Notes: generated from the sequence alone by a model not told the origin. A stretch of 64,000 nt of DNA from a virus (IMGVR_UViG_3300011113_000787:47269-111268); one strand, 5' to 3'. Counted from the stretch's first letter, positions 19,084-63,508 are shown. Numbers and translations: made by a program.

Positions 19084-19899
19084 ATGAAAATAGCACTATA
19101 TCTACTCCTTTTTTTACCTATTTTAGGGTTTTCACAAACAAGTTCGTGGAGAACACAGCCTCCATCAAACACTCAATCCAAAACCACTACGAATACAACC
19201 CCCTCAACCCAATCCAACAACTCAATTAGTTCATGGAGAAATGAGAGTCCAAGAGAATTTAACAAACCGAGAACAAATCCAACTGTTTTAGTTAGAGACC
19301 CTTGGTTTGATATGGGTTGGAATAGATGGGGAATGTGGGGGGCACCTCGATTCGGATGGAATAGTTATCTTCCCACTTGGTATTACAATGATTGGGGTTA
19401 CAGACAACCTGCAAGAGTCTATTATTACAATGATGGGAAAGTAGATACTGTAAGAGGTAAAAGACCGATTTATAGTTTCGGTTTACATCATACTTCTAAC
19501 CGACAGATGGGTGCATTTTTCACAATTGGTAATAAAGGATATTTTATTTTTGATTTCAACACAACTTACGAAAGGGACCGTTCCACCTTTTTTCCATACG
19601 GAACGATAGACCAAGTAGATTTTCCCTTAATTTCAGATTTAGTTAAACAAAATAGTTTCTACTTAGGTGCGGGTAAGAGGATAAATAGATTTGGAGTTCA
19701 CGCAATGGTCGGTTTCGCAAACGAGAGAATCCTTTGGAGAGGTAAAGACGATGTGGGTGAAATAACATTTCCTAAATCCCAACAAAATTTTGTTACGTTC
19801 AAGTTTGGAGCAATGAAAGACTTCAAAAATTTTACATTTAAGATGGATTATGACCCTGTTGTAAGATACGGGCAGATAGGTGCGGGTCTTAACTTTTGA
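19084..19899 (+). CDS. secreted outer-membrane beta-barrel-like protein
   Basis: Signal peptide ...LGFSQ; Thr/Ser/Asn-rich linker; alternating beta-strand pattern; C-terminal ...GAGLNF (terminal Phe typical of OMPs). Confidence 0.45.
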   Translation: MKIALYLLLFLPILGFSQTSSWRTQPPSNTQSKTTTNTTPSTQSNNSISSWRNESPREFNKPRTNPTVLVRDPWFDMGWNRWGMWGAPRFGWNSYLPTWYYNDWGYRQPARVYYYNDGKVDTVRGKRPIYSFGLHHTSNRQMGAFFTIGNKGYFIFDFNTTYERDRSTFFPYGTIDQVDFPLISDLVKQNSFYLGAGKRINRFGVHAMVGFANERILWRGKDDVGEITFPKSQQNFVTFKFGAMKDFKNFTFKMDYDPVVRYGQIGAGLNF

Positions 19900-20092
19900 T
19901 TTTTTTCTTTTCCTCCTGCCATTCATACCAAAAAGCAAGAAGTACGACCAAATTAATTCCGAGAGACATCATAATTTCTTTAAAATCATCATATACACTC
20001 ATTGTTAGGTGAATATGTCCAACCACCCAAAACGGCACCGCTAACTTGGATGCAACATACCTTATAAAAAATTTGAAAAATTCCATTATCAA
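19889..20092 (-). CDS. small membrane protein (67 aa)
   Basis: Two hydrophobic helices. Confidence 0.3.
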   Translation of the reverse strand: MIMEFFKFFIRYVASKLAVPFWVVGHIHLTMSVYDDFKEIMMSLGINLVVLLAFWYEWQEEKKKIKS

Positions 20093-20097
20093 TAAGT

Positions 20098-22683: not shown

Positions 22684-22697
22684 ACAAATAAATACAA

Positions 22698-22720
22698 CAA
22701 AAAACCCTCTTTTCAGAGGG
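22698..22720 (-). terminator. rho-independent terminator (bidirectional-capable)
   Basis: AAAAAA CCCTC ttttca GAGGG TTTTATTT. Confidence 0.55.
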
Positions 22721-22726
22721 TTTTAT

Positions 22727-23137
22727 TTAATCGATTACTTCAGTTAGAAAATATCTCAAATTGTACCCTTCTGAAACATTAATGATTGAAATAACAGCAG
22801 TTTTGGACTCTTTATGTGATAAGACATCAATTTTAACCATTTGGTCTTCTCTTAAATCTTTCGCAGTATATCTATACCCTGAAAGACTTTTAGTATTCAT
22901 TTCCTCTTTGCTATTCTCATAAACCTTAAACATAGAAGGTTTTTTAGCTTGGAAACTAATAAACTGAGGTTCAACAACTACAGTGATACTAACATCAGAA
23001 TTTTTTGTATATAACTCCCATGATTTGTTAACGTTGTCGTAAGTGTACATCTCAGTTAGAGTTGCTTTGTAATAAGTTTGTGCGGTTAGCATTAATGTCG
23101 ATACAACCAAAATGAGAGTTAAAAAAAGTTTTTTCAT
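22727..23137 (-). CDS. secreted hypothetical protein (136 aa)
   Basis: Signal peptide MKKLFLTLILVVSTLMLTAQ. Confidence 0.45.
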   Translation of the reverse strand: MKKLFLTLILVVSTLMLTAQTYYKATLTEMYTYDNVNKSWELYTKNSDVSITVVVEPQFISFQAKKPSMFKVYENSKEEMNTKSLSGYRYTAKDLREDQMVKIDVLSHKESKTAVISIINVSEGYNLRYFLTEVID

Positions 23138-23139
23138 TA

Positions 23140-23571
23140 TTAAAGTATTGTAATTGAATTGATTTTGTCTCCTGCTTGGATTCTGTCTACGATATCAACA
23201 CCTTCGGTTACCTTACCAAAACAAGTATGGTTTCTATCCAAGTGTTGGGTATTTTGTCTATTGTGGCAAATGAAGAATTGAGAACCACCTGTGTTTCTAC
23301 CAGCATGTGCCATAGATAAAACACCTCTATCGTGAAATTGATTAGGTCTGTCCACCTCACAAGGGATTTGATAACCAGGACCACCCGTTCCCGTACCAAG
23401 AGGACATCCACCCTGAATCATAAACCCAGGTATTACTCTGTGAAAGTTTAATCCATCATAGAATTTTTTTTCAATCAACTCTATAAAGTTTTTTACTGTT
23501 ACTGGTGTTGCGTCATCATATAAGTCCGCAATCATATCACCTTTGTCTGTTGAAATTTTTACTTTAGTCAT
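23140..23571 (-). CDS. cyclophilin-type peptidyl-prolyl cis-trans isomerase
   Basis: FHRVIPGFMIQGGCP, LSMAHAGRNTGGSQFFI, cyclophilin signature blocks. Confidence 0.8.
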   Translation of the reverse strand: MTKVKISTDKGDMIADLYDDATPVTVKNFIELIEKKFYDGLNFHRVIPGFMIQGGCPLGTGTGGPGYQIPCEVDRPNQFHDRGVLSMAHAGRNTGGSQFFICHNRQNTQHLDRNHTCFGKVTEGVDIVDRIQAGDKINSITIL

Positions 23572-32374: not shown

Positions 32375-33319
32375 TTATTTCAAATTAAGTAATACGTTTC
32401 CATTTGAACCTAGCACGGTGGTTGGAACATCTCCTTTCCACTTTTGAACTTTGAGATAGTCAATGTAAAGTGGTGTAAGATATTGTTGTTCTTTCCTAAC
32501 AGCTTCCGCTCTACCTGAGGCAGCGATTACAGCTTGTGCCGAATCACCCTTAGCTCTGGCAATCTTTTCAAATGCCTCAGCTTCCGCAACTGCTTTACGT
32601 TGCATTGCCGCTTGGGCTTCTTGTACGGCTTTAGTTTTTTCTTCAATAGCTTTGGTAATCGCTGGTGGAGGGGCAATGTTTGTTCTCAATTGAGACACAG
32701 TGAACCACTTACCAACACGCTTATTACATTCAACAATGATGGCAGATTCAAATTCAGCTCTATGATTAAAAATTGAATCAACTGTGAATAAGTTTGCAAC
32801 ATCATTAACTGATGAAACAATTGCATTTCTTAACCAACCTTGTTCAACCGTTTTAATATCAACACGCAAGTTTTGAAACATTTGGTCTACTGCGGTTGGG
32901 TTTAATGAATAGTTGAAACTTGGTTTAATAGTTACTTGGAATCCACCCTTAGTGATTATGGTATTCTCTTCATAATCAATGTGTTGTTGGTAAACAGGGA
33001 ATTCATAGTACTGCTGAGTAAATGAGTTATATAAAACCCATCCACGTTTGTATTCAACCTTTGCCATACCACGGCTGTCTCCAATATTATCAACAAGAAT
33101 TGCAACTTTACCTGAGTCTACTCTTTCAACTTCATAAGGGTTTAAAATTGCAATGGTGAAGGCCGCAACCAAAGTGAGAACCGATTTGATTACTTGAGAG
33201 GTGTTTGTTTTTCTGTCTCCCCATTTATCTACTTCACCCAAGTAGTTTTTCATGTTAAATACTCCGAGGAATAGTCCCATTATTCCGAATACCAAAAGGA
33301 ACGTGATTAGTCCAATCAT
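32375..33319 (-). CDS. SPFH / band-7 (stomatin-prohibitin-HflK/C-like) membrane protein
   Basis: N-terminal TM, central SPFH-like region, Ala/Glu-rich coiled coil (AQAAMQRKAVAEAEAFEKIARAKG) typical of the family. Confidence 0.55.
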   Translation of the reverse strand: MIGLITFLLVFGIMGLFLGVFNMKNYLGEVDKWGDRKTNTSQVIKSVLTLVAAFTIAILNPYEVERVDSGKVAILVDNIGDSRGMAKVEYKRGWVLYNSFTQQYYEFPVYQQHIDYEENTIITKGGFQVTIKPSFNYSLNPTAVDQMFQNLRVDIKTVEQGWLRNAIVSSVNDVANLFTVDSIFNHRAEFESAIIVECNKRVGKWFTVSQLRTNIAPPPAITKAIEEKTKAVQEAQAAMQRKAVAEAEAFEKIARAKGDSAQAVIAASGRAEAVRKEQQYLTPLYIDYLKVQKWKGDVPTTVLGSNGNVLLNLK

Positions 33320-37192: not shown

Positions 37193-37220
37193 TAAAAAAC
37201 CCCTCTTGTTGGGGAGGGGG
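37193..37220 (-). terminator. rho-independent terminator (minus strand)
   Basis: A-run + CCCCTC ttgttggg GAGGGG. Confidence 0.5.
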
Positions 37221-43375: not shown

Positions 43376-44104
43376 ATGAAAAAAATAACCTTGATTATTC
43401 TTTTGTCCACCCTATTTGTGGCATGTCGAAAGAAAAACTACGTGCAACCCATCTCGAGTTTGTATAACGGTTTGGTTGCCTATTATCCTATGGATGGTAA
43501 TACCAATGACCTTACTCGTTACTCAAATCACGGTGTATCTACAGCTTCATTCACCACTGACCGAAATGGAATACCAAACAAAGCATCTGATTTTATCAGT
43601 GACGAATTTCAATCAACCAATATTCCCATCAATCTTAAATCACAATATACTTTTTCATTTTGGGTTAAAATGAATGCTTATGACGATGGTATGGCAGTGA
43701 TGGAGTTAACCAAAAATAAATCTTGTGAACTTAATCCTCAGATTTGGCAATGGCAAGACACCATCTTTCTATCCACATCATCTAATGTTAACGGTAGAAT
43801 GCCAATAATGTCTATGCAAAGAATCAAAGGTGGAGCTACACCAACTTGGAGTCATGTTCTGTGGACGGTAAAAAATGAAATAACCAAACTCTATGTGAAT
43901 GGTATTTTGATAAATCAAAAAGTTATTAATTGGCCTGACCTCACTAATGTCGATTTGACCTTGGGTAACTCAGGTAATCAGTGTACAGGAGACTTAGGTG
44001 CATCAAATTATCATAATCAACCGTCCAAGGTTTCAATTGATGAGGTCAGAGTATATAATCGTGTGTTATCTGATAGTGAGATATTGAACCTATCAAGAAA
44101 ATAG
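43376..44104 (+). CDS. lipoprotein with LamG / concanavalin-A-like lectin domain
   Basis: Lipobox LSTLFVAC; KLYVNGILINQKVI...SIDEVRVYNRVLSDSEILNL is the LamG_3 pattern. Confidence 0.55.
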   Translation: MKKITLIILLSTLFVACRKKNYVQPISSLYNGLVAYYPMDGNTNDLTRYSNHGVSTASFTTDRNGIPNKASDFISDEFQSTNIPINLKSQYTFSFWVKMNAYDDGMAVMELTKNKSCELNPQIWQWQDTIFLSTSSNVNGRMPIMSMQRIKGGATPTWSHVLWTVKNEITKLYVNGILINQKVINWPDLTNVDLTLGNSGNQCTGDLGASNYHNQPSKVSIDEVRVYNRVLSDSEILNLSRK

Positions 44105-44111
44105 AATTGAA

Positions 44112-44148
44112 GGGTTATTTGGAAATTGAATCTAAATAACCCTTTTTT
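44112..44148. terminator. bidirectional rho-independent terminator
   Basis: GGGTTATTT (13-nt loop) AAATAACCC + TTTTTTATTT. Confidence 0.55.
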
Positions 44149-44162: not shown

Positions 44163-44837
44163 TCATTTTTTCTTTTTCACACAGTTCGGATATCTTTTAC
44201 CAAACATAGTTTTCATGCCCTTTTGAGTGTATCCTTTCCAGCATCTCTCTTTGAGTTCACCCTCGGTCTGTTCCATCTTTTTCTCACCTCCAGGTCTGAT
44301 AACAATTATCTGACCAACATATAGGTTTTGTGGCGTTATTGGAGTTTCATAAAAATCAAACCAACATCTTCTGAAGTCGTACTTACTCACAACTCTCATC
44401 TCTTCTAAGTAAGGGTCTAAGATAAATAAGTTTTCATCATTATACCCTATGACTACTGATGAATGTCCCTCGGGTGGGTCACCACAGAACCAATCGACAA
44501 TCACAGGAACGTTGGCATCAATCAAACGAACAACTTCTTCGATTGTTGAGTTGTTTTTCATATAAACTTTGAAACCTAAAGACTCAGCTGCACAAGCCAT
44601 GTCTTCACTCTTACATCCTAATTCATATGTGTGGTCACAAATTTCAGCAATATCTTTCTCACTCAACATTGTACCATAGTATCCGAAAACCATTCTTAGT
44701 GAAGCAGGTCCGCAAGTTGAATCATCTGATTGTAGAAAATGAGGAACATCCAAAATCTTTGTTGGAGTTTGGTTAGTTTCCTCAATTATCAGAGAAACCA
44801 ATTCGATAAGTTGTGTTTCAGTTAATCTACGTATCAT
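44163..44837 (-). CDS. C39-like papain-fold cysteine peptidase with family N-terminal helix
   Basis: MIRRLTETQLIELVSLIIEE N-terminus; FLQSDDSTCGPASLRMVFGYYG (Q..CG.ASL.M) and GHSSVVIGY...DP blocks as in peptidase C39. Confidence 0.55.
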   Translation of the reverse strand: MIRRLTETQLIELVSLIIEETNQTPTKILDVPHFLQSDDSTCGPASLRMVFGYYGTMLSEKDIAEICDHTYELGCKSEDMACAAESLGFKVYMKNNSTIEEVVRLIDANVPVIVDWFCGDPPEGHSSVVIGYNDENLFILDPYLEEMRVVSKYDFRRCWFDFYETPITPQNLYVGQIIVIRPGGEKKMEQTEGELKERCWKGYTQKGMKTMFGKRYPNCVKKKK

Positions 44838-45722: not shown

Positions 45723-45904
45723 TCCTTTTTTTCTTTAGGTATCAACCTAAATGTACAAGCTCTCTTTCCATTTATTGTTGGCATTCCGTACTCATCAACA
45801 CCAATTGTTTTAACTGTAGTCTTCTTGTTTTTGAATCTACCTGTGTAGATTATGTCCCCCACTTTTAGAGGGACATAAATTCCACTGAATTTCTTTTCAC
45901 TCAT
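45719..45904 (-). CDS. hypothetical small protein (61 aa)
   Basis: Overlaps umuC start (ATGA coupling). Confidence 0.35.
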   Translation of the reverse strand: MSEKKFSGIYVPLKVGDIIYTGRFKNKKTTVKTIGVDEYGMPTINGKRACTFRLIPKEKKD

Positions 45905-47109
45905 ACAAATACTTTTGGTATTTCATCCCACGAAGTTGTATACTTTTGAGACATGAAATCTTGTTTCATTTCCCACTCCTTGGTTTTATTTACAGGCGCC
46001 TGAACAAGTTGTATTGAACTTGAAAATAGTGTTGGTTGTTCGATGTTCTCAGGCATAAGGTCGTTAAAGATTATACCACACTTTTTATAGTTTTTCTTTG
46101 AGTTATACATCTTTCTAAGGTGTGGATATACTTGTGACCATATTTGGTCTATATCACGGGTTTGTGATTCAAATTTAATCTGTTTTGAACTATAATGTTT
46201 CTCACCTTTGTGTACATTACCACTCAGAAAGATTGTTGCCCTGTTTGGTGATATCTCATTATCAATAAGTTTCTTTACACCGTTTTTGATGTATGTGTAC
46301 ATCGCTTCAGCAAGTTGGTCAAAGTCATTCACATCTTTACCAAATGAACGAGTTGATGCCACGTTTTTCTTTAACTTCGGGATTGGTTTTACAGGGTGGC
46401 AGTACATTCCGAGTAGTTCGCATTTGGTTCTCAAACCATTCACATTCATCATTCCTCTAACAATAGAATCAGACATCATAACAAACTGTCCAATACTTTC
46501 TACCCCTTGAAGTTTTAACTTCTTTGTCCACTTTCTTCCTACACCCCAAACTTCATCGACAGGTATTGTATAAAGTGAATCTCTGAAATTTTGTAAACCC
46601 CAATACGAACAAACACCATCATAAGATGGTTGTTGTTTTGCCATGTATGACGTAAGTTTGGCGAGTGTCTTGTTTGGACCAACACCAATTGATACAGGAA
46701 TACCAGTAAGTCTTTTGACTTCGTTTCTGATTAGATGTAATCTGTCTTGAAGTTCTTCGTCAGGTATGTTAGAGAAGTCAACGAAACATTCATCGATTGA
46801 ATACACCTCCACTTCGTTCGCATACTTTTTGATTGTGGTCATAACCCTGTCGGACATATCACCATAAAGATTATAGTTGGAAGAGTATACACAGAATCTA
46901 TGTTCGTCCATGAATTCCTTTTTCATAAAGAATGGTTCCCCCATCTTTATTCCGAGGTCTTTGGCTTCTTGTGAGCGAGCAATAACACAACCGTCGTTAT
47001 TTGATAACACGACAGTTGGCCTTCCTATGGAAATAGGATTAAACACTCTCTCACAACTTACATAGAAATTGTTACAGTCAACAATACCAATCTTCTTATT
47101 GGACTTCAT
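45901..47109 (-). CDS. umuC: Y-family DNA polymerase (UmuC/DinB-like)
   Basis: IGIVDCNNFYVSCERVF (D.D.FY.S.E), SIDECFVD, IPVSIGVGPNKTLAKL blocks of the IMS/UmuC family. Confidence 0.75.
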   Translation of the reverse strand: MKSNKKIGIVDCNNFYVSCERVFNPISIGRPTVVLSNNDGCVIARSQEAKDLGIKMGEPFFMKKEFMDEHRFCVYSSNYNLYGDMSDRVMTTIKKYANEVEVYSIDECFVDFSNIPDEELQDRLHLIRNEVKRLTGIPVSIGVGPNKTLAKLTSYMAKQQPSYDGVCSYWGLQNFRDSLYTIPVDEVWGVGRKWTKKLKLQGVESIGQFVMMSDSIVRGMMNVNGLRTKCELLGMYCHPVKPIPKLKKNVASTRSFGKDVNDFDQLAEAMYTYIKNGVKKLIDNEISPNRATIFLSGNVHKGEKHYSSKQIKFESQTRDIDQIWSQVYPHLRKMYNSKKNYKKCGIIFNDLMPENIEQPTLFSSSIQLVQAPVNKTKEWEMKQDFMSQKYTTSWDEIPKVFV

Positions 47110-47476
47110 CTTTATCTAATTTAGGTTTTCCGTGTGGTTTTGGTTTTCCGTTTTCATCAAGTAATACAAACACAATCTTGTCTATTCTAACAATAGATTG
47201 TTTTGTAATTTTATTCCTAACGTCACACGCTATCGTAATTGAACTCGTACCCACTTTAACCATATCCATCCCGAACTCTATGATATCACCAAGAACTGCG
47301 GTTGATACAAAGTTAATCTCAGACATCGCTTTTGTTACAATGTTCGGACTACCGAGTTGGCAGATTGCAAATATCGCAGCCTCTTCATCAATCCATTTTA
47401 GGACCTGTCCTCCAAACAAAGTTCTTCTTGGATTTAGGTCACCTGGCTTTACCAATTTTCTTGTTCTATATTTCAT
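47096..47476 (-). CDS. hotdog-fold acyl-CoA thioesterase-like protein
   Basis: LVKPGDLNPRRTLFGGQVLKWIDEEAAIFA resembles the 4HBT/YciA thioesterase N-terminal block; inserted between umuD-like and umuC. Confidence 0.45.
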   Translation of the reverse strand: MKYRTRKLVKPGDLNPRRTLFGGQVLKWIDEEAAIFAICQLGSPNIVTKAMSEINFVSTAVLGDIIEFGMDMVKVGTSSITIACDVRNKITKQSIVRIDKIVFVLLDENGKPKPHGKPKLDKDEVQ

Positions 47477-47790
47477 ACCTTATTCAATATCCACGAAACT
47501 CTCCCCCATAAATTGGTTTGACCTTCGTACTTTCTTATTTTAAAATGATTAGTTTCGGTTAACACTACAAGGTCACCTTCGACAGGGTCAATAGAACGGT
47601 CTATAACGAGGATATTTCCCGTCTTGACTCCAAGAGTACTTGGACCCATATAACGGAAATAAAACGTCGTATAAGTGTTCTGAATGATTAATTCGTTGAG
47701 GTCTAACCTCTTGTCCACGTACGATTCGGCAGGAGATGCGAATCCTGTGGTTCTTGATTTAATATTTAATTCCTTTGTAGTAGTTTCCAC
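47473..47790 (-). CDS. umuD: UmuD-like (LexA/S24 peptidase family) protein
   Basis: GFASPAESYVDKRLDLNELIIQ closely parallels UmuD GFPSPAADYVEQRIDLNQLLIQ; Ser and Lys of the dyad present (GPST ... FKIRKY). Confidence 0.6.
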   Translation of the reverse strand: METTTKELNIKSRTTGFASPAESYVDKRLDLNELIIQNTYTTFYFRYMGPSTLGVKTGNILVIDRSIDPVEGDLVVLTETNHFKIRKYEGQTNLWGRVSWILNKV

Positions 47791-49510: not shown

Positions 49511-50626
49511 TTAATTCTCTAAGTCAAGTTGCTTAACCAAATTAAGTGCTTGAGCAATAATTTGATGCATATCATAATAAACATATGTTGCAAGTCTTCC
49601 ACCAAAATAATAGTTTGGTAAACTCTCGGTCATTTTTTTGTATTGTTCGTACACCTCAGTATTTTTATCATCTCTGATTGGATAGTAAGGTTCGTTATTT
49701 CCGTTGTAATCAACAGGATATTCGTGACTTATGATTGTACCTTTTTGGCCTTGATGGTCGAACCATTTGTGTTCTAAAATTCTTGTGAACTTAGTTTCAC
49801 GGTCTGTGTAATTTACTACTGGTACTCCTTGGAAGTTGTCGATGGGTAAAACTTGAGTTTCCCAATCCAAACTTCTGTATTCTAATTGACCGTGTTCGTA
49901 GTTAAAAAATTTATCAATTGGTCCCGTGTAAATTACTTTGTTAGCCAAACCATCGAAATACTTTTTATTATCGAAGTAATCCACACCAAGTTCCACATCA
50001 GAACTCTCTAACATTTTTTCGAATATTTGAGTATAACCTCCAATCGGCATACCTGTGTACTTGTCGTTGAAATAATTACTATCCCAAGTAAACCTCACAG
50101 GTAGTCTTTTAATTATTGATGGTGGAAGTTCTTCACAGGTTTTGTTCCATTGTTTTTCAGTATAACCCTTAATCAACCTTTCATAAATCTCTTCTCCGAC
50201 CATAGACTTAGCTTGCTCTTCGAGATTAGAGATTTTTCCTTTATACTTAACCTTTTCAAGTTTTTCTTTTGCTTGTTCAGGTTCATTAACATCCCATAGT
50301 TGATTGAAGGTCCACATGTTGAAGGGTAAGGTATACATATCTCCCTTATAATTTGCAATAACATTGTGTGTATATTGCTTAAATTCAGCGAACTGATTCA
50401 CATAATCCCATATGTTCTTGTCGTTGGTATGAAAAATGTGAGCACCATATCTATGTACGTGTATACCGTTAACATTTTCTGTATAACAATTACCACCAAT
50501 CACTTTTCTTTTATCTATTACAAGACATTTAAATCCTTTCTTGGTTAACTCGTAAGCACAAACCGAACCGAAAGGACCTGCCCCTACAATAAGATAATCA
50601 TACTTTGGTTTTTCTAATAATATCAT
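49511..50626 (-). CDS. glf: UDP-galactopyranose mutase
   Basis: YDYLIVGAGPFGSV FAD-binding Rossmann motif; HRYGAHIFHT and overall length match Glf. Confidence 0.8.
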   Translation of the reverse strand: MILLEKPKYDYLIVGAGPFGSVCAYELTKKGFKCLVIDKRKVIGGNCYTENVNGIHVHRYGAHIFHTNDKNIWDYVNQFAEFKQYTHNVIANYKGDMYTLPFNMWTFNQLWDVNEPEQAKEKLEKVKYKGKISNLEEQAKSMVGEEIYERLIKGYTEKQWNKTCEELPPSIIKRLPVRFTWDSNYFNDKYTGMPIGGYTQIFEKMLESSDVELGVDYFDNKKYFDGLANKVIYTGPIDKFFNYEHGQLEYRSLDWETQVLPIDNFQGVPVVNYTDRETKFTRILEHKWFDHQGQKGTIISHEYPVDYNGNNEPYYPIRDDKNTEVYEQYKKMTESLPNYYFGGRLATYVYYDMHQIIAQALNLVKQLDLEN

Positions 50627-51777
50627 TTGAAATCAAATGTAAAACTTTCACTATCGATGAAGTGTTCCCCCATCTTATTGGTTATCTTTTCTCTAAATTC
50701 GTTTAAGAAATTGCTCGTGTTGAGATAACATCTATCTTCAATTAAGAAAGCTAAATCAGGGAAAGGATTTGTTCTCTCAGGTTTAGCCATCAAATCGATA
50801 GTTTCCAAAACCTTATCAAACATTCCAAGACGTTCATAATAAAAAGCCAAATACATAAAATGTTCATTTCTTCTTAATGAGAACTGTCCTGCTAACATGT
50901 AAGTTTCCTCAGCCTTTTGATGGTCACCAATAAACTCATAAGCCCATCCCATTACAATCAGTCCGAAATAAGCCATTTCGTCGCTATACTTAGCAGTCTT
51001 GGACTCATTCCACTTATGTGTAAGTTCTAAGAATCTTTCGTAATACCAAATAGACCTTCTTGCATATTCTTCTGAGTGTTTTCTACCAAAAGGTAATTCA
51101 CTTGAATTACCGTAGCAGTCCGCATAACTTTTAGCAATATACCAAAGGTGGTAATAATCTTCATTAACTTTGTCTCCAACGACTTTATCAATTTCAAGTT
51201 CCAAAGCATCTCTAAGAAACTTTCTTGGTGCTAACCATGTGTTACCATCTTGAGAAACCAAATGTCTAAACCCATAAGGCATTGAAAGTCTCTGAAACTC
51301 TTCTCCAACTTCAGGAAGATGGATTGTTTCGTGTCTTTTATCGTGAGCGAAATAGAATGGTAATTTAGCATTCCAAAACCAACATCTGAAATATCTCATC
51401 CCACCTGTGTCTGCAGTAATGTTATAACTCTGAACTGATGTGTCGTTTAAAATTGACCAATCAAAGTCTTCATCTACCTGAAGTCTTTCATCGGCATCCA
51501 TTCTGAGTATCCAATCACAACCATGGTCCGCCTGTAAACACTTTTGGAGTGTGTGGTCACGGTTCCAACCTGGGAAATTCCACTCAACCTGATAGGTGAA
51601 TCCAGGTATGTTCTTTTCCTTAAAGAAGTTATCAATCTTTTGTTGAGTATCGTCATTTCCGTTACATTGAATAACATAGTAGTCAACATAAGGTGCAACA
51701 GATTCTAACATTCTTGTAATGGTGGCAGATTCGTTACCGACCATTGAGTTTACACAAATTTTTGTAGTTTTATTCAT
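50623..51777 (-). CDS. glycosyltransferase (GT2-like N-terminal domain) with TPR-like C-terminal region
   Basis: ICVNSMVGNESATITRMLESV...RMDADERL (DxD) ; overlaps glf start by 4 nt. Confidence 0.5.
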   Translation of the reverse strand: MNKTTKICVNSMVGNESATITRMLESVAPYVDYYVIQCNGNDDTQQKIDNFFKEKNIPGFTYQVEWNFPGWNRDHTLQKCLQADHGCDWILRMDADERLQVDEDFDWSILNDTSVQSYNITADTGGMRYFRCWFWNAKLPFYFAHDKRHETIHLPEVGEEFQRLSMPYGFRHLVSQDGNTWLAPRKFLRDALELEIDKVVGDKVNEDYYHLWYIAKSYADCYGNSSELPFGRKHSEEYARRSIWYYERFLELTHKWNESKTAKYSDEMAYFGLIVMGWAYEFIGDHQKAEETYMLAGQFSLRRNEHFMYLAFYYERLGMFDKVLETIDLMAKPERTNPFPDLAFLIEDRCYLNTSNFLNEFREKITNKMGEHFIDSESFTFDFK

Positions 51778-53017
51778 AAATGTAATTCATTACTCCCTCT
51801 TCTTCGAAGAATTTCTTTACGGGAGTGTGTTTTTGAAATTTATGGGAATGTCCCAACTCTTCGTCCCAATACCAATCATCATATCCGAGTTCTTTAATTC
51901 TTTCATGGATTCTTGTATCGTAATGGTCTCTTATTAATCTAGCTCTTCTGTTGATATCAATTGCGTTGTTATCAACTGTACTATTTCTGTTGTTGTATTG
52001 TAAGTATAACATTTTTTTCACATGAATAAATCTTGTATGAAGAAATGACCTTACAATAATTTCAAAATCATCAGCCACAGGAGTGGACTTATTATGACCA
52101 CCGATATCGTGGTAGAAGTTTCTTTCCCACATCCTTATGTGATTTGGCATTGATATGTTAAATCTGATGGTAAGAGGGTTGATATCAGGGTACCAATGTG
52201 CTAAGTACCTTTTACCATCCGCAACCACCCAACTATGTCCAGCATAACCAAAATCAAAGTAGTTATCGGGTCTTGCATACCAATTACCACTCCAATCGTG
52301 GTCGTAAGATTTCATTTCACCATCTTCATAAACCTCACAACTGTCGGTATATAAAAACTTACCATCAGGGTATTTCTGAATCGCACTCAAACATGTTTCC
52401 AAACAGTTTGAAATCAAAGCGTCGTCATGGTCTAATTCACAAACCCAATCTCCATCACAAAGCATTGCTGCTCTATGTTTAGACAAACCCACATTACCAC
52501 CAGTAAGAGGGTAAATTTTATGTATTTTTACTCTAAAGTCTTGGTTTGAAATTAGTTGGAGTTTTTTCCAAGTATCATCATCAGGGGAGTCATCAACAAC
52601 TACCCATTCCCAATCTCTAAAGGTCTGATTTTTGAGACTTTCATACGTTCTGAATATTCTATCACCCGTTTTATATGTTGGAGTGAATATGGAGAACTTA
52701 GGACGACGGTATTTACAATTTCTAAAAACCGATTGGCATACAATTATGTTAGCCAAAACGTTATCCCCCAAAACCTCGTCAAGGTGAACGTGAATATCGT
52801 GTAATTTTGAATCATTAATTTCTATAGGTTCAACGATAGAAACAATTAAATCGGGTTCATATTTCGAATAGTCTGAGAATACATCGTCAGTATAGGGTAA
52901 TGATATAAGTTGAACCTCATCTTCCAAACCTTCCTCAAAATAAACATCCGACTGTAAAATGTGGTGACCTTGAAAATGCCATCCATAAACTATTGCACTA
53001 GGTTTCTTTGTCTTCAT
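51770..53017 (-). CDS. family 2 glycosyltransferase
   Basis: FSIFTPTYKTGDRIFRTYESLKNQTFRDWEWVVVDDSPDD and ELDHDD (DxD). Confidence 0.55.
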   Translation of the reverse strand: MKTKKPSAIVYGWHFQGHHILQSDVYFEEGLEDEVQLISLPYTDDVFSDYSKYEPDLIVSIVEPIEINDSKLHDIHVHLDEVLGDNVLANIIVCQSVFRNCKYRRPKFSIFTPTYKTGDRIFRTYESLKNQTFRDWEWVVVDDSPDDDTWKKLQLISNQDFRVKIHKIYPLTGGNVGLSKHRAAMLCDGDWVCELDHDDALISNCLETCLSAIQKYPDGKFLYTDSCEVYEDGEMKSYDHDWSGNWYARPDNYFDFGYAGHSWVVADGKRYLAHWYPDINPLTIRFNISMPNHIRMWERNFYHDIGGHNKSTPVADDFEIIVRSFLHTRFIHVKKMLYLQYNNRNSTVDNNAIDINRRARLIRDHYDTRIHERIKELGYDDWYWDEELGHSHKFQKHTPVKKFFEEEGVMNYIYE

Positions 53018-54286: not shown

Positions 54287-54311
54287 TAAAAAACCCCTCA
54301 CGTTGGAGGGG
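54287..54311 (-). terminator. rho-independent terminator (minus strand)
   Basis: A7 + CCCCTC acgttg GAGGGG. Confidence 0.55.
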
Positions 54312-54319
54312 TAAGATTG

Positions 54320-54631
54320 TTACGACCTTTTTCTGTGGGGTTTACCGTGGTGTCTTTTACATTTGGAACATGTAAGTTGAGGTCTGTGATTGGCCAGTCT
54401 ATATATTTGAGCCGCTCTCATTTGTTTCATTCTGTTGAATTGTTCCTCGGACATTGTGATTATCACCTTACCGTCTTTTTTTTCAATGTGAGGTCTTTGT
54501 CTTTCAAGGGCTTGTTGATGGTCCAAAAAGTCCCTAAATTGATTTGGCAAAGGTCTTTGACCTCTTGGTTGTTGTGCAACGAGCGAAAGTGTAGCAAATA
54601 GGCTCATTACGATTAGCATCATTTTTTTCAT
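54320..54631 (-). CDS. secreted basic small protein (103 aa)
   Basis: Signal peptide ...LSLVAQQ; His/Arg-rich C-terminus. Confidence 0.4.
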   Translation of the reverse strand: MKKMMLIVMSLFATLSLVAQQPRGQRPLPNQFRDFLDHQQALERQRPHIEKKDGKVIITMSEEQFNRMKQMRAAQIYRLANHRPQLTCSKCKRHHGKPHRKRS

Positions 54632-56951: not shown

Positions 56952-56979
56952 AAAATAAAAACCCCCGATTTCTCGGGGG
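56952..56979 (-). terminator. rho-independent terminator (minus strand)
   Basis: A-run + CCCCCGA tttc TCGGGGG. Confidence 0.55.
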
Positions 56980-57123
56980 CTTTACTTATTTCTTTATTTT
57001 AGAAACAAGCTTTAGAATATGTGGTCCCACCACAAATCCGACAACTACACCCAATAAAAAGTGCCAGTGCCATAAAAATTCTAATTGTTCCATAGTTTTT
57101 AAAAAGGTTTAATTTTGTTTAGA

Positions 57124-57576
57124 CTATAAATGATAGTTTAGACCCAAACCTACAAGGTTAGAGTGCTTACCATCTTTTACAGTTCTTAGAATTGATTGTT
57201 CTAAGCACCATTTCTTGTTTATCTTGTATCCAATGGTTGGGACATAAGTAAATTGTCCTTTTTGACCATTGAACAAAGTAACACCCCCATCAAGACCAAC
57301 ATATAGGTTCTTTTTAAGGTGCTTACGGTACCCAACTAACACAGGCATTCTTACAAAAGACGCCTTGTCTTGCATGAACTGAAAAGATACATTCAAATTC
57401 TTTTTATGAAAGTTAACTTTCTGACCCCATGCTTTTGAGTCCCAACCAACATTTCCTGCTAACGGTGCGTTCACAGTTGCCCCCACAGAGATGTCCCATC
57501 CCTTTTTGTCGTGTTTTTGTGCAAATGTTACTAGCGAACATGTGATAGCAAGAAATAACAAAAATTGTTTCTTCAT
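57124..57576 (-). CDS. small outer-membrane beta-barrel protein (OmpA/OmpW-like 8-strand type)
   Basis: Signal peptide ...LVTFAQ; alternating hydrophobic beta pattern; aromatic-rich C-terminal strand. Confidence 0.45.
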   Translation of the reverse strand: MKKQFLLFLAITCSLVTFAQKHDKKGWDISVGATVNAPLAGNVGWDSKAWGQKVNFHKKNLNVSFQFMQDKASFVRMPVLVGYRKHLKKNLYVGLDGGVTLFNGQKGQFTYVPTIGYKINKKWCLEQSILRTVKDGKHSNLVGLGLNYHL

Positions 57577-59012: not shown

Positions 59013-59452
59013 TTTAATGAATAGACATCCACATCAAGAGGTGTCCCATAATATGTTACATCAATATTGAAAAAGGATTTTAGGTCTTTGAATATTTCCC
59101 TTTTGGTTACAGCAGCCCAATTTCTATCATTTTCCATATTATTGAAATCAAAATAAAACTTCAGATTTGGTTTCTGAATTGAAAAGTTTTCATGTCCATA
59201 GTGAGAGGGTTTCTCCTTAATCTCAATCTTTACCAATAAGTCACCGTACTTAGATTCGAAGTAATCAACTATCCTTGGAATAATACTTTCAATATGACTT
59301 TTATATTCTTTAATGAACTCAATTCTGCCTTCCGTCGGTAGGTTGTGAAACTTCACCACCCAATCTGGTGTATTAGGTTCAACTTTGAGTGCTTCCTTTA
59401 AAACCTTTCTAATGAGTTCTTTCATCGTCCCCTTTCTGTTTTTTTGTTCCAA
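58997..59452 (-). CDS. hypothetical protein (151 aa), family-like N-terminus (MKELIRKVLKEALK)
   Basis: ORF, array member 5. Confidence 0.45.
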   Translation of the reverse strand: MEQKNRKGTMKELIRKVLKEALKVEPNTPDWVVKFHNLPTEGRIEFIKEYKSHIESIIPRIVDYFESKYGDLLVKIEIKEKPSHYGHENFSIQKPNLKFYFDFNNMENDRNWAAVTKREIFKDLKSFFNIDVTYYGTPLDVDVYSLNWTKV

Positions 59453-59723
59453 AATAATATGAGAATATCATCAGAGTCAATGTTTTTATAAGGTCAAAAA
59501 GTTCAGCATTTTGTTCTTCATCAACAAGTTTTATCTTAAATGCAATTACCTTATCAACAATAAAGAGTGCCACAAGAGCGGTAAAAACCATCAGAATAAA
59601 CCTTACCAATACCTCTTGAGTGGAATCTTTGAATAACTTACTTACATACCATATCGACCCCATGATGAAACCAAGGGCTAATAGTATACCAAAAATCATT
59701 ACAATTCCACCTTCGCTAAACAT
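59409..59723 (-). CDS. small membrane protein (104 aa)
   Basis: Two hydrophobic helices; TATTTATTGTT box upstream. Confidence 0.4.
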   Translation of the reverse strand: MFSEGGIVMIFGILLALGFIMGSIWYVSKLFKDSTQEVLVRFILMVFTALVALFIVDKVIAFKIKLVDEEQNAELFDLIKTLTLMIFSYYFGTKKQKGDDERTH

Positions 59724-59745
59724 AACAATAAATACAAAAGAAAAT

Positions 59746-59771
59746 AAAAAACCCCTCCGTTTCTGAAGGGG
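59746..59771 (-). terminator. rho-independent terminator (minus strand)
   Basis: A-run + CCCCT..AGGGG hairpin. Confidence 0.5.
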
Positions 59772-59777
59772 TTTAAA

Positions 59778-60980
59778 TTAGTTTCCTTTTGTTGGGAATC
59801 TTGTCCAACCGTTGGTCCAAGTTGGTTTGGATAACAAATCCATTTCCCCTTTGGTGTATTGTTTTTCTGAATTACCTTCGGATAGTGCCTTGGTTTTCAT
59901 GTCTGTTGCTGTAAACACTGTAGAGGTAGATTTAAAATTGAGAAGTGGGTCAAATGCCTGAATCTCATTATTCAAAAATTTAGAGACCCTGTCCTTGTAA
60001 GACTGAGCAGTTTCATTACTTTCAATTGAAAATGAACCCTTTTGATATCCAAGTATTTTTGAGTTTGTTATTGTGAATTGAGTTGCTCTTCTCCATCTCA
60101 AACCTAGATTATGGTTTGATAAAGAAGTGTTGCTAAATGGTCCAATCAAAATCATTTGGTTTAACTTTGGATGTGTAAATGGTTGTGCAGATGAACCTGT
60201 TCCATCATTATCACATTCAACACCATTTCCTGCATCTCCGTTATCAACAAATAAAGGGTCTCTTTTGGAAACACCGTAATTAAGTTCACCTGTGTAACCA
60301 AAGTCAAAGTCATAATCATCATCTGCTGTTGCGAATGCATAAAGATATCTTGGTGATACAGTTCCACCGAAGAATTCAAATGCGTCGTCGTTAGCATAAA
60401 TTGTTTGGACATATTGGATAATTGTTCCTCTGCCAACTGCACCTAACGTCAAAGCATTTATCTCAGAATTTGGAAGTGCTGCAATTCCAGCGTACTCAAT
60501 TCTAACATACTTGATTATACCACTGTTGTCTTCATCATTTGTTCCACCATAAGGTCTCCCGATTCCACCTTCAATTGTTGGTTCAGAACTTCTGTTTGTT
60601 TTTGCTCTACCAAGGATTACAATCCCACCCCAATCACCAGGACTTCTTTGTCCTTCAGGTTGACCTGATGTGAAAACAATTGGTCTATCAGGTGTGCCTT
60701 CAGCAATTATCTTTGCACCCCTCTCAATACATAGTGCACCTTTTTCTGCAACATCTGATTTGATTACAGTTCCTGGTTGGATTATTAATGAAGCCCCATC
60801 TGTAACATACACATAGCCCTTCAATGTCCATACTTTGTCTGAAGTCAAAGTTGTTGTTGCGTTAATGTTACCTGATAGAGTAGTTGATGATGGTACGTTT
60901 ATTGGTCCCTCATCACCTCCAAGGTCTTTAGTACAACTGATAAATGATAATAAAGTCAGAGACAATAATAATTTTTTCAT
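59778..60980 (-). CDS. surface lipoprotein (400 aa), partner of the TonB-dependent receptor
   Basis: Lipobox LLSFISC; overlaps upstream TBDR stop (ATGA). Confidence 0.5.
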   Translation of the reverse strand: MKKLLLSLTLLSFISCTKDLGGDEGPINVPSSTTLSGNINATTTLTSDKVWTLKGYVYVTDGASLIIQPGTVIKSDVAEKGALCIERGAKIIAEGTPDRPIVFTSGQPEGQRSPGDWGGIVILGRAKTNRSSEPTIEGGIGRPYGGTNDEDNSGIIKYVRIEYAGIAALPNSEINALTLGAVGRGTIIQYVQTIYANDDAFEFFGGTVSPRYLYAFATADDDYDFDFGYTGELNYGVSKRDPLFVDNGDAGNGVECDNDGTGSSAQPFTHPKLNQMILIGPFSNTSLSNHNLGLRWRRATQFTITNSKILGYQKGSFSIESNETAQSYKDRVSKFLNNEIQAFDPLLNFKSTSTVFTATDMKTKALSEGNSEKQYTKGEMDLLSKPTWTNGWTRFPTKGN

Positions 60981-63508
60981 AGATTTAAATTAATTGATAG
61001 AGAGATTGATTGTTCGTTGTTTGTTTTAATCAAATCCCTATTGTTTATTTTTTGATAAAATCTTGTTGGTTGTGCTAGCAAATCCCCAACAGATAATTTT
61101 ATTTCTCCTTTTTTTAATTTTCTTAATATAACCATGTCTACAACATCTCTTGAGTTTTCGAAGATATCAGGATATCCTTGAAATCCAACTGCAGATATTC
61201 TTTCTCCGATTCTATTATATGTTATTGAAACAGAGTTGTTGTTCTTGTGGAAATTCAATCCACCATTGATAATATAATTTGATTGTCCTTGTAATTGTCT
61301 TTTGATTTGACCGACATTCACATTTGAATTGATAAGTGCTGAGTTTGTGTAAACATCAAGCCAGTCGCTCATCTTTTTTCTAAATTCAAATTCAATTCCA
61401 ATTACAGATGCTTGATTTGGATTTGTATATGTTAGAAGAAGATTTGATGGTACTGAACCGTCAGCAACTATTTGTTCAATTGGTCTGATAAAGTTTTTTG
61501 AGAAAACTCCAATTGAAAAGTTTTCACCAAGTTTTGGATAATGTTCCCACTTCAAATCGAAGTTGTAGATATCAGTTTTCTCAAGGTTTGGATTACCTAA
61601 AAGTTGTGCGTTTCTAACGAAGTCATAGTATGCAAAGTTTGCTACTTCTCTGAACTCAGGTCTTGCAAGTGTCTTAGACATCGAGAATCTAAACTTATCT
61701 TTCTCCAAGTTATATGATAGGTTAACTGATGGTAAGAAGTCCAAGTATTCTCTGTTAACTCTCACTCTTGTACCACTGAAATCTGATGTGTTAACTTGAA
61801 ATACATTGTACTCTGTTCTAAGACCACCATTAAATTTCCATTTGTTCCATGTCTTATCGTATTGGACATAACCATTCGAAAGGTCGAAGTCTGCGGAATA
61901 TCTATCAGCGTTGTTTGTGATTTCGTTCAACAGGTCTGCCGCATCATATCTGAATATTCTTGCTTGAAAGTTTCTGAACTTTTTTAGGTGTCCTACACCT
62001 ACTTTAAAGTCACCAAAGTCTTTGTCTACCGAACCATTAAATTGGTTTTCATCCATCACAGACCAGAATCTATAAGTGTCTCTCCAAGCAACTGAGAAGT
62101 TATCATTTGTTCCCAATGACTTTGTTATTGGATTAACTCTATAATCAGGTTGGTCTCTTAACATCAAGTTATAACCCAAGATGAAATCCCATGTCTTTAT
62201 CTTACCTTCGAATTGAGAGTTGAAGATTGTTTTAACCACCGTGTTTGATGAATTACTTTTAACATATTGAACGTTATCATAATTCTCACCGTTTCTTTGT
62301 AGATAAGAACGTTCAACCTGATGATTCAAAATTGACTTCCAAGAGAATTTATTATCACCAATATAAGTTAGGTTGAATAATCCACTCACAGAACTGTTAT
62401 CAGTAAACAAAGTGTCTCTGTATTTGTAAGCAAGCTCTGTTGAACTTTGATAGTCCAATCTATCTGTGTAGTTAAGACCAAATGATTTTCTTGCGTTTGA
62501 GCTAAACAAATAATTCCACTTGGAATTTTTCAAACCAAATGAAAGACCTCCATTAAAGTTTGGCGTGGATAGGAAGTTACGTTCATTTCCATCAACCATT
62601 AGTTTTGTGTATGCCCTTCTGTCTCCGATTGTTCCAACTCTGAATTTGTATGTTGACGGAAACTTGGTGGGGAAGGTTATATTTTCCACCAATCTGAAAT
62701 CTCTTAAACTCGAAACCGTTCCATAACTTGTTCCGAGTGATAAGGACAAAAAATTGTCGTTTACCTCCTTTGTTGTAACTTGAACAACTCCACCAGCGAA
62801 GTCACCAGGAAGTGATGGAGAAGCCGATTTCAATACCATCACGTTATCTATAAGACCCGCTGGTATGATATCAAAAGAAAATGACCTTCTATCTGGTTCT
62901 GTCGAAGGTAAAATTGTTTTATTTAAAAATGAAAGGTTATATCTATCAGAAAGTCCTCTTACCAAAACAAACTTATCGTTTTGGATTGTAACCCCATTAA
63001 CCCTTTTCAATACGTCACCAACTGTTCTATCAGGAGTCTTCTCAATGTATTCAATCGATACTCCATCAGATACAACATTATTGTTTCTTATTGTTCTGAT
63101 AACAGAAACTTCAGTAACTTTCTGTGGGACACTCCTTACTACAACCTCATTTAATTGAGTTGTATTGTCTTCAAATACGATATCATAATTCATATCACCC
63201 TGAACCAATAAGTCCTGTAGATACTCCTTATATCCAACGTAGGTTGCTTTAATCTGGTACTTACCCTCGGCTAAAGTGATTGAGTAAATTCCGTCCTTGT
63301 CTGATAATGTGGTGAAGACCTCACCTTTTTCGTTCTTAAAAGTAATGTGCGAAAAATAGATTGTCTCAGTCTTTGATTTTGTTACCCCTTTGATGTTCAC
63401 TTGAGAGAACAAAAAGTTTGGTAAAATTAGAAATAAAAATAAAAGTTGTTTCATGTCCACAATAATTATGAACTCAACTTTACATGCCCATAGTTTTTGT
63501 ATTAACAA
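60977..63508 (-). CDS. TonB-dependent outer-membrane receptor (CarboxypepD_reg-like N-domain + plug + barrel)
   Basis: Signal peptide ...FLFSQ; VNIKGVTKSK...YQIKATYVGYKEY carboxypeptidase-regulatory-like domain; plug block DNVMVLKSASPSLPGDFAGGVVQVTTK. Confidence 0.65.
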   Translation of the reverse strand: MLIQKLWACKVEFIIIVDMKQLLFLFLILPNFLFSQVNIKGVTKSKTETIYFSHITFKNEKGEVFTTLSDKDGIYSITLAEGKYQIKATYVGYKEYLQDLLVQGDMNYDIVFEDNTTQLNEVVVRSVPQKVTEVSVIRTIRNNNVVSDGVSIEYIEKTPDRTVGDVLKRVNGVTIQNDKFVLVRGLSDRYNLSFLNKTILPSTEPDRRSFSFDIIPAGLIDNVMVLKSASPSLPGDFAGGVVQVTTKEVNDNFLSLSLGTSYGTVSSLRDFRLVENITFPTKFPSTYKFRVGTIGDRRAYTKLMVDGNERNFLSTPNFNGGLSFGLKNSKWNYLFSSNARKSFGLNYTDRLDYQSSTELAYKYRDTLFTDNSSVSGLFNLTYIGDNKFSWKSILNHQVERSYLQRNGENYDNVQYVKSNSSNTVVKTIFNSQFEGKIKTWDFILGYNLMLRDQPDYRVNPITKSLGTNDNFSVAWRDTYRFWSVMDENQFNGSVDKDFGDFKVGVGHLKKFRNFQARIFRYDAADLLNEITNNADRYSADFDLSNGYVQYDKTWNKWKFNGGLRTEYNVFQVNTSDFSGTRVRVNREYLDFLPSVNLSYNLEKDKFRFSMSKTLARPEFREVANFAYYDFVRNAQLLGNPNLEKTDIYNFDLKWEHYPKLGENFSIGVFSKNFIRPIEQIVADGSVPSNLLLTYTNPNQASVIGIEFEFRKKMSDWLDVYTNSALINSNVNVGQIKRQLQGQSNYIINGGLNFHKNNNSVSITYNRIGERISAVGFQGYPDIFENSRDVVDMVILRKLKKGEIKLSVGDLLAQPTRFYQKINNRDLIKTNNEQSISLSINLNL

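Follow-up and report, generated by a model that had tools for sequence, protein, structure and literature searches.

Why a virus should carry the genes of a probable outer-membrane uptake system is the question raised by a stretch of 64,000 nucleotides from the viral contig IMGVR_UViG_3300011113_000787 (positions 47269-111268), the whole of which is referred to here as the window. Within it an initial annotation had listed seven open reading frames (ORFs) for cell-envelope or secreted proteins, and all seven are present, each with a signal peptide or a lipobox as called by a heuristic scan for hydrophobicity, charge and lipobox motifs rather than by SignalP; the N-termini follow the Bacteroidota pattern of K/R, a hydrophobic core and then FSQ/FAQ or a lipobox. 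Two of them form an operon encoding a TonB-dependent transporter and a beta-helix lipoprotein, and this operon is probably a phosphorus-acquisition auxiliary module, derived from a host Pho regulon and carried by a jumbo phage. The features of the locus are as follows.

60977-63454, minus strand: TonB-dependent transporter with a signal peptide, a CarboxypepD_reg-like domain, a TonB-box-like LNEVVV, a plug and a beta-barrel
59778-60980, minus strand: Beta_helix_4 (PF28492) lipoprotein with lipobox FISC, its start overlapping the transporter stop codon by 4 nt (ATGA)
63500-63516, minus strand: Pho-box-like dyad TTAACCATTTGTTAATA, two direct half-sites 11 bp apart, about 47-63 nt 5' of the transporter ATG
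63534-63557, minus strand: intrinsic terminator that closes the upstream gene, at the upstream edge of the cassette
59749-59774, minus strand: intrinsic terminator directly 3' of the lipoprotein gene
59426-63529, minus strand: the 4.1-kb cassette missing from relatives of 317-321 kb, with the transporter, the lipoprotein and a 104-amino-acid ORF with two transmembrane segments at 59409-59723

The transporter comprises the Pfam domains CarbopepD_reg_2, Plug (PF07715, 2.7e-9) and OMP_b-brl_3 (PF14905, 2.7e-25). Its best NCBIfam match is to TIGR01782 (TonB-Xanth-Caul) with 163 bits, under the cut-off of 310, and no SusC/RagA model of NCBIfam or Pfam matches it, just as its partner is a Beta_helix_4 protein and not a SusD. 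The region of the plug and the EVVV TonB box aligns closely with cellular homologues (LNEVVV against EVVV or EVVI). The start had been placed at TTG 63508, which is too far upstream, because the signal peptide MKQLLFLFLILPNFLFSQ is present only with a start at ATG 63454; TTG 63508 falls within the promoter region of the gene. The lipoprotein was assigned to Beta_helix_4 from precomputed PF28492 matches on 99%-identical proteins and on the gene of locus L021 (sampled loci carry L numbers), an older Pfam set that does not contain this model having given no match. Its AlphaFold2 model, with a predicted template modelling (TM) score of 0.79, is a right-handed beta-helix. The fold neighbours are generic, namely pectate lyases, polygalacturonases and tailspikes (best E = 3.8e-3, TM score about 0.3), so that no enzymatic activity can be assigned to the protein.

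The pair is resident in viral genomes. A search with the transporter returned 20 IMG/VR loci and one with the lipoprotein at least 137 IMG/VR contigs of up to 326 kb, in which the gene often lies mid-contig. The two genes are adjacent in all 18 phage loci with enough sequence, and the pair is also present in a 635-kb megaphage genome (LR745206). Its neighbours in related contigs are large-phage genes, encoding SegE homing endonuclease, primase, PDDEXK nuclease, DnaB, UvsX, ribonucleotide reductase, clamp loader, dUTPase, dCMP deaminase, thymidylate synthase, GH19 proteins, endolysins and a virion structural protein. Both flanks of the pair in the window are made up of genes of the element, with 63563-63973 on one side and the genes on the other side conserved in viral contigs, and locus L001 runs 10 kb past the window with phage-like genes.

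The window itself has a GC content of 33-35% and about 119 ORFs, most of them ORFans. It is best interpreted as a section of a jumbo phage genome some 320 kb long, because its genes recur in similar order, at 57-96% identity, on IMG/VR contigs of 317,210, 321,139 and 321,283 bp. These relatives are collinear with window positions 53.6-64 kb, and in them the flanks of the cassette are directly joined but for a 253-bp segment. A blastn comparison with one 321-kb relative (L196) gives 76% and 69% identity for the flanks, between which 253 bp containing a 52-amino-acid ORF stand in place of the cassette. Terminators of one type, CCCCTCC...GGAGGGGTTTTTT, flank both the cassette-plus and the cassette-minus version, and the window has 10 matches to this sequence where 2.6 are expected. 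Terminators with this CCCCTCC-loop-GGAGGGGTTTTTT layout are found in the window at 63534-63557, 59749-59774, 54293-54312 and 37195-37205, and in L196 at 910-940 and 1160-1190. Strong intrinsic terminators also lie 3' of 22727, 43376, 54320, 57124 and 59778, five of the seven envelope genes, another precedes the transporter, and terminator-like sites between 44 and 64 kb number 26 as against 10.5 +/- 3.4 in shuffled sequence. The recurrent terminators at the cassette borders may be recombination hot spots for the swapping of moron genes. Matches to sigma-70-type promoters occur in the window at the level of chance (69 against 71.5), and those to the Bacteroidota -7 motif TAnnTTTG exceed expectation only slightly (112 against about 89).

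The GC content, third-position GC and codon usage of all seven envelope genes lie within 1.5 standard deviations of other window genes, and the loci with cellular homologues have a mean GC of 43%. The proposal that the seven genes are cargo of the element has thus held up, with composition like that of the neighbours, element genes on both flanks, terminators of the element's own type and syntenic relatives that lack the cassette, and the sequence evidence favours element cargo over flanking host DNA. As judged from its gene content, the pair consists of host-derived transport genes with viral genes on both sides, which is the mark of a viral auxiliary metabolic gene.

The bacterial origin of the pair is evident from its cellular relatives. 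The Beta_helix_4 domain occurs in about 7,000 clusters among 1.8 billion representative proteins, many of them large and multi-repeat. Single-domain cellular relatives of the lipoprotein, with 41-57% identity, are encoded just 3' of a transporter gene that has these same domains. This transporter-to-Beta_helix_4 order is seen in 67 of 80 GTDB loci (67 of 71 when only those with enough upstream sequence are counted) and spans Chitinophagales, Sphingobacteriales, Cytophagales, Flavobacteriales, Bacteroidales and Ignavibacteria-type metagenome-assembled genomes (MAGs). Neighbour-joining trees of the two proteins each unite the phage copies in a single clade, and in the lipoprotein tree this clade is nested in Chitinophagales beside L032, L033 and L050. 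The closest cellular copy, in L032, is 66% identical for the lipoprotein and 50% for the transporter, and related phages have the lipoprotein at 72-99% identity. Comparison of the phage copies gives a dN/dS of 0.04-0.22 for the lipoprotein and 0.05-0.17 for the transporter, 0.04-0.22 for the pair as a whole, indicating purifying selection. The pattern fits one old capture followed by vertical inheritance under selection. A phage-type pair is also found in L031 (JBILRJ010000032.1), a 17-kb contig of a Spirosomataceae MAG with 36% GC and otherwise unmatched genes, where it groups with the phage copies (72% and 59% identity to the window, 79% and 72% to other phage loci). This is probably a mis-binned phage contig.

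Some of the cellular cassettes are linked to phosphate genes. In L032 the genes PHO4 and PhoU lie divergently to a series made up of Metallophos, a 130-amino-acid ORF, the transporter, Beta_helix_4 and a porin O/P homologue, beyond which a PhoR/PhoB-like pair is found on the opposite strand. In the Chryseobacterium locus L096, PhoR-PhoB stands directly 5' of the transporter. Linkage to phoBR or phosphate-transport genes is seen in L029, L032, L043-47, L050-54 and L096, and 18 of the 81 cellular loci, with a concentration in the clade closest to the phages, have Pho-type neighbours within 8 kb. The phage copy in the window does not have this linkage, the window holding only a polyphosphate kinase 2 (PPK2), a nuclease and a Metallophos gene elsewhere. 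In four phage loci a Metallophos gene adjoins the pair and is 40% identical to that of the cellular Pho loci.

The same arrangement is known from Flavobacterium johnsoniae, whose 'PhoBR operon' (PUSIV) encodes OprP, PhoR, PhoB, the transporter Fjoh_0545 and the pectin-lyase-fold lipoprotein FII, Fjoh_0546 (Lidbury et al. 2021, PMC8115612). Fjoh_0545 has the Pfam set PF07715, PF13715 and PF14905, and with Fjoh_0546 it is induced by a log2 of 8-10 under phosphate depletion and abundant in the exoproteome; the response is to phosphate, with none to nitrogen or iron limitation (PMC8115612). The FI-FIII proteins of F. johnsoniae are in turn reported to be related, at 31-36% identity, to ElpS of Caulobacter (PMC8115612). 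ElpS of Caulobacter crescentus is a surface lipoprotein that is made only under phosphate starvation and raises extracellular phosphatase activity, and its gene co-occurs with the adjacent one for CC0171, a TonB-dependent receptor (Le Blastier et al. 2010, PMC2996285).

A regulatory motif points in the same direction. Two to six [C/G]TTAACA/GTAACA units, repeated every 11 bp, are arrayed upstream of the cellular transporters, and a Bacteroidota -7 box (TAnnTTTG) comes after them. PhoB/PhoP sites in general are built as direct repeats of this period. Pairs of the form TAAYA-N6-TAAYA occur in 37 of 62 cellular 200-nt upstream regions, the rate being 0.7% for random windows taken from these loci and 1.2% for shuffled sequence, so that the enrichment is about 80-fold. 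Arrays of at least three units number 30 in 1.1 Mb, and 24 of these lie upstream of the cassette or of PhoU, PHO4 or Metallophos genes. The TAAYA units with their 11-bp period can therefore be regarded as a candidate Bacteroidota Pho-box consensus, for which PhoB binding is predicted only. In the window TTAACCATTTGTTAATA is the sole dyad match; the strict pattern is not enriched across the window (1 against 0.78 expected), and what gives the dyad its weight is where it lies and how it is conserved across loci, rather than window-wide enrichment. Of 19 distinct phage upstream regions, 14 keep the dyad, 46-93 nt 5' of the start; the background rate is 0.005 per 90 nt.

These observations can be assembled into a model in which a phage with terminator-bounded moron genes exports their products to the host envelope. 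The phage lineage would have acquired the two-gene operon once, from the Pho regulon of a Chitinophagales-like bacterium, and kept it by purifying selection. In the infected cell the transporter would be inserted into the outer membrane and energised by the TonB-ExbBD system of the host, with the lipoprotein placed at the cell surface as its partner, like ElpS with CC0171 and FII with Fjoh_0545. The pair would raise the uptake of a phosphorus-containing substrate and thereby feed the replication of a very large genome in phosphorus-poor lakes, and the retained Pho-box-like dyad would allow host PhoB to switch the operon on at low phosphate. The best explanation for the host is a freshwater member of Bacteroidota, and the related contigs and MAGs appear, from the sample identifiers that they share, to come from freshwater metagenomes, Lake Mendota among them. 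A more far-reaching statement is a serious but tentative possibility, namely that widespread freshwater jumbo phages captured a whole Pho-regulon outer-membrane uptake operon, kept the PhoB-binding site, use the host TonB and, in many relatives, recruited a small barrel as a third component.

Several points weigh against a phosphorus-acquisition module of this kind. Only about one fifth of the sampled cellular cassettes have recognisable Pho genes within 8 kb, and the trees carry no bootstrap support. The matching of the window pair with Fjoh_0545/0546 and ElpS/CC0171 is drawn from domain architecture, fold and gene context. The first half-site of the window dyad is imperfect (TAACC), and TAAYA-type arrays are not known as PhoB sites in Bacteroidota. 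Moreover, one phage lineage (L003, L024, L111, L112 and L209) does not have the dyad, and its transporter lacks the CarboxypepD_reg-like N-terminal domain. The transporter gene of these phages lies within about 50 nt after a PDDEXK nuclease gene, which suggests that it has been rewired into a phage operon.

Other functions for the pair have to be set against this. Members of TIGR01782 are often tied to carbohydrate uptake, and a SusC-like glycan importer with a polysaccharide-binding or polysaccharide-cleaving beta-helix lipoprotein would accord with a partner whose fold resembles pectate lyases, polygalacturonases and tailspikes. A TonB-dependent receptor in a megaphage genome has indeed been noted already and read as 'SusC', with carbohydrate uptake proposed for the protein of Mar_Mega_1 and its LR745206 homologue (Michniewski et al. 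2021, PMC9723777). However, the transporter matches no SusC/RagA model and has no SusD-type partner, the fold matches of the lipoprotein are as generic as described above, no carbohydrate-active enzyme genes were seen beside the cellular cassettes, where Pho genes and Pho-box-like arrays are found instead, and the F. johnsoniae counterpart responds to phosphate and not to nitrogen or iron (PMC8115612), so glycan import is quite unlikely. The initial annotation had suggested receptor masking and superinfection exclusion alongside nutrient uptake, and of these it is nutrient uptake that the evidence favours. Remodelling of the surface, whereby envelope proteins displace or mask the receptors of competing phages or stop progeny from adsorbing to doomed cells, would account for the ten exported proteins encoded in 64 kb, for the clustering of exported-protein genes around the pair in related phages and for small barrels that have no detectable homologue in the 81 cellular loci. 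Among known morons there are indeed genes for 8-stranded barrels, lambda Lom being an example. A mask, though, needs neither a conserved plug and TonB box nor a Pho-box-like element, and a lipoprotein conservation of 72-99% is above what an arms race would lead one to expect, and surface remodelling is judged unlikely.

The nature of the element has also been questioned, the TonB-dependent receptor having been taken as a sign of a phage-plasmid or of a conjugative or integrative element instead of a strictly viral genome. Capsid, portal and terminase genes were not found by PHROG and Pfam searches in the window or in the flanks examined (large flanking ORFs of L016, L024 and L007), a further point against the jumbo phage, and most of the genes are ORFans; viral identity is assigned here from membership of IMG/VR and from gene content. 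Against a non-viral element, no integrase, relaxase, partition, conjugation, replication-initiator or type IV secretion family is among the Pfam and PHROG matches listed for the window, and no tRNA gene lies within its 64 kb. The gene content is that of large lytic phages, with proteins that resemble tail fibres, a tape measure and virion structural proteins in Pfam and PHROG matches, and three independent, syntenic contigs of 317-321 kb are present in IMG/VR. Since at least 137 IMG/VR contigs and a 635-kb megaphage carry the pair, amid large-phage neighbours, the receptor loses its value as such a sign and a plasmid-like or conjugative element is very improbable. Equally, it had been allowed that 59.7-63.5 kb might be a junction with a host chromosome, and an assembly chimera would have the same effect; homologous cassettes in cellular genomes and the MAG contig L031 with its phage-type copy could be cited in favour. 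This is barely credible, given that 63563-63973 and the genes on the opposite side are conserved in viral contigs, that L001 continues phage-like for 10 kb, and that the closest cellular copies are only 66% and 50% identical and lie in DNA with a mean GC of 43% against 33-35%.

The pair is accompanied by further envelope and secreted cargo, often clustered with the operon in related phages. The exported proteins of the window beyond the pair are listed below, the last three being additions to the original seven.

19084-19899, plus strand: outer-membrane protein with a signal peptide, a disordered region rich in S/T/N/Q and in W, an 8-stranded OmpA/OmpX-like barrel (by model) and a terminal F
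57124-57576, minus strand: probable small (about 8-stranded) outer-membrane beta-barrel with signal peptide MKKQFLLFLAITCSLVTFAQ and a terminator at 56958-56983
43376-44104, plus strand: LamG (Laminin_G_3) lipoprotein with lipobox LFVAC, Pfam E = 3e-17 and a terminator at 44109-44145
22727-23137, minus strand: exported ORFan of 136 amino acids with signal peptide MKKLFLTLILVVSTLMLTAQ and a terminator at about 22699-22724
54320-54631, minus strand: exported ORFan of 103 amino acids with signal peptide MKKMMLIVMSLFATLSLVAQ and a terminator at 54293-54312
13477-14112, plus strand: exported non-specific nuclease, with a signal peptide and Endonuclease_NS (E = 2.4e-38)
12257-12877, minus strand: predicted lipoprotein with lipobox FIVMAC and no Pfam match
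3549-3974, plus strand: predicted exported protein of 141 amino acids with no Pfam or NCBIfam match

Two beta-barrels had been anticipated among these. For the protein at 19084, whose signal-peptide N-terminus is MKIALYLLLFLPILGFSQ, AlphaFold2 gives 8 antiparallel strands across residues 129-271, with a predicted local distance difference test value above 90, and Foldseek matches the model to the OmpA transmembrane domain (1qjp, E = 3.6e-5), OprF and OmpX, with 4rlc and 2m06 among the matches. The model thus identifies it as an 8-stranded outer-membrane barrel like the OmpA transmembrane domain or OmpX. The protein at 57124 is a probable small outer-membrane barrel, with about 8 amphipathic segments, a C-terminal residue L and weak matches to PF13505 (OMP_b-brl; 6e-4 or weaker) in 8 of 34 family members, so that the first of the two barrels stands and the second is probable only. 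A relationship between the two was considered and could not be demonstrated, a profile-profile comparison having matched only the signal peptides. Sequence searches of the PDB with these two proteins and with the lipoprotein of the pair gave nothing meaningful. The other identifications hold, the LamG lipoprotein being borne out by Laminin_G_3, the TonB-dependent receptor by Plug and OMP_b-brl_3, and its partner lipoprotein by the lipobox FISC and Beta_helix_4. The LamG lipoprotein has no close relative in IMG/VR and, by blastp, no paralogue in the window.

In 14 of the 80 loci of its family the 19084-type gene comes straight after the transporter and lipoprotein genes, at intervals of 100-200 bp, and in L208 and L209 the order is a 57124-type barrel, a 54320-type protein and the transporter. 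Homologues of the 22727 ORFan, with 89-93% identity, lie on the 317-321 kb and other viral contigs, while those of the 54320 ORFan, with 55-82% identity, adjoin 57124 homologues; in an overall tally the two are conserved at 69-93% in related viral contigs. Nuclease genes of the 13477 type occur near the pair or near a 19084-type gene in L112 (3705-4346) and L148 (1006-1629). In L008, L010, L014, L016, L019 and L020 (positions 500-9900) a conserved block of at least six exported proteins and a class-3 lipase lies 5' of the transporter, its members being proteins of 541 amino acids, of 644 amino acids with a C-type lectin domain, of about 299 and of 239 amino acids, and two small lipoproteins. 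Since the small barrels and ORFans are shuffled around the pair and have no homologue in the 81 cellular loci, they constitute an envelope and secretome module specific to this phage group. The exported nuclease might release phosphorus from extracellular nucleic acids. That PPK2, this nuclease and a metallophosphoesterase (by Pfam) are also encoded in the window is circumstantial for the phosphorus reading.

The remaining features of the window are given here.

1813-2919, minus strand: PPK2 (PF03976, E = 9e-70)
45901-47790, minus strand: UmuC-type Y-family DNA polymerase (PHROG 1268, E = 1.5e-111), a thioesterase-like ORF and a UmuD/S24-like ORF
49511-53017, minus strand: UDP-galactopyranose mutase and two glycosyltransferase-like genes, also found in L004 at 63-75% identity
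10177-11157 and 11181-12227, minus strand: tandem paralogues with a common N-terminus of about 130 amino acids (MATTRPFAYNTGST...) and differing C-termini
24963-58319: family of paralogous small proteins, nine ORFs (for example 28802, 35120, 37545, 41558, 57691 and 58011), with the N-terminal motif MKYIISESRL / LTESDLxRLVKR
32375-33319, minus strand: SPFH/Band-7 membrane protein (PHROG 200)
23140-23571, minus strand: cyclophilin-type peptidyl-prolyl isomerase
44163-44837, minus strand: C39-like papain-fold peptidase

PPK2 is another phosphorus-metabolism gene common to the window and the megaphages, being 50-53% identical to genes of 'uncultured phage' genomes of 635-735 kb (LR756502, LR745206 and LR756501). 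When eight large window proteins were concatenated and compared with GenBank phages, matches arose through PPK2 only, and a megablast of 24 kb of the window gave no nucleotide match to GenBank phages. Proteins from the window edges, looked up by exact sequence, led to no contig that would extend it. Recognisable functions in the window, in Pfam and PHROG scans, include UmuC/UmuD, cyclophilin, an endolysin with PG_binding and GH19 domains and an M23 peptidase. The genes at 45901-47790 make up an error-prone polymerase module in the phage, and the sugar genes at 49511-53017 may serve in the modification of host surface glycans. One of the tandem paralogues has a Thr/Pro-rich linker and the other a LamG domain with a match to PHROG 8510, 'virion structural protein', a layout as for exchangeable receptor-binding proteins. 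One further ORF matches the cREC_REC domain (PF20274, E = 2.3e-28).

How the phage operon stands in relation to known systems can now be considered. With PUSIV of F. johnsoniae (PMC8115612) it has in common the Pfam set of the transporter and the pectin-lyase or beta-helix lipoprotein that follows, and the phoBR, OprP and PitA-type linkage of PUSIV is mirrored in L032, L052 and L096. The window copy differs in being viral, in having no phoBR, in the 4-nt overlap of its genes and in the single Pho-box-like dyad that is left, and the likeness is drawn from architecture, fold and gene context. The Caulobacter system resembles it in the co-occurrence across genomes of genes for a surface lipoprotein and a TonB-dependent receptor and in its dependence on phosphate starvation (PMC2996285), and the best NCBIfam match of the window transporter is to the Xanthomonas/Caulobacter subfamily. 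In contrast, Caulobacter belongs to another phylum, ElpS is released by a protease dependent on type II secretion, which is absent from Bacteroidota, and homology is reported only through F. johnsoniae FI-FIII.

The megaphage LR745206 likewise has a TonB-dependent receptor in a very large Bacteroidota phage genome, with a Beta_helix_4 gene adjoining it, but identity to the window is only 27% for the transporter and 40% for the lipoprotein and the gene order is reversed. The LR745206 lipoprotein gene was at one stage thought to be interrupted, an idea rejected when translation gave an intact frame. About 10 kb from the megaphage transporter (L030, 9-545) lies a gene for a 178-amino-acid protein 66% identical to a window protein. 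The published account of this 'SusC' does not describe the partner, the Pho context or the regulatory motif (PMC9723777).

As with the phage-encoded 8-stranded barrels of the lambda Lom or Ail type, the protein at 19084, and probably that at 57124, is a small barrel encoded by a terminator-bounded moron in a phage genome. The 19084 protein shows no sequence similarity to Lom or Ail, carries a disordered, Trp-rich N-terminal extension of 110 residues and in many relatives goes together with the transporter cassette.

The textbook examples of phosphate auxiliary genes come from marine cyanophages, where the proteins are periplasmic or cytoplasmic. Zeng and Chisholm are said to have found in 2012 that cyanophage pstS and phoA are under the control of the host PhoBR. 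The phage operon described here would be alike in that host Pho genes are carried by lytic phages of phosphorus-limited waters, that a Pho box is retained and that the starvation signal of the host drives the viral copy. In the cyanobacterial case, however, the products are a phosphatase and a binding protein of the periplasm, whereas here an outer-membrane transporter and a surface lipoprotein of Bacteroidota are concerned, with regulation predicted from the motif. Searches of the open-access literature turned up neither a phage-borne Pho-type transporter cassette nor a Bacteroidota Pho box.

If the phosphorus reading is true, it would extend the idea of phosphate auxiliary genes to heterotrophic Bacteroidota and to the outer membrane, across more than a hundred lake viral contigs, and would provide the first outer-membrane transporter among auxiliary genes with retained host regulatory wiring. 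The megaphage 'SusC' would have to be reinterpreted, and the occurrence of sister phages with and without the cassette would make possible a direct ecological comparison against lake phosphorus levels. A natural handle on the substrate of the ElpS and FII systems would also be gained. Finally, ElpS/CC0171, the Flavobacterium FI-FIII proteins and the Pfam family Beta_helix_4 would be joined as one family, whose conservation in viruses would argue for a central role in phosphorus scavenging.

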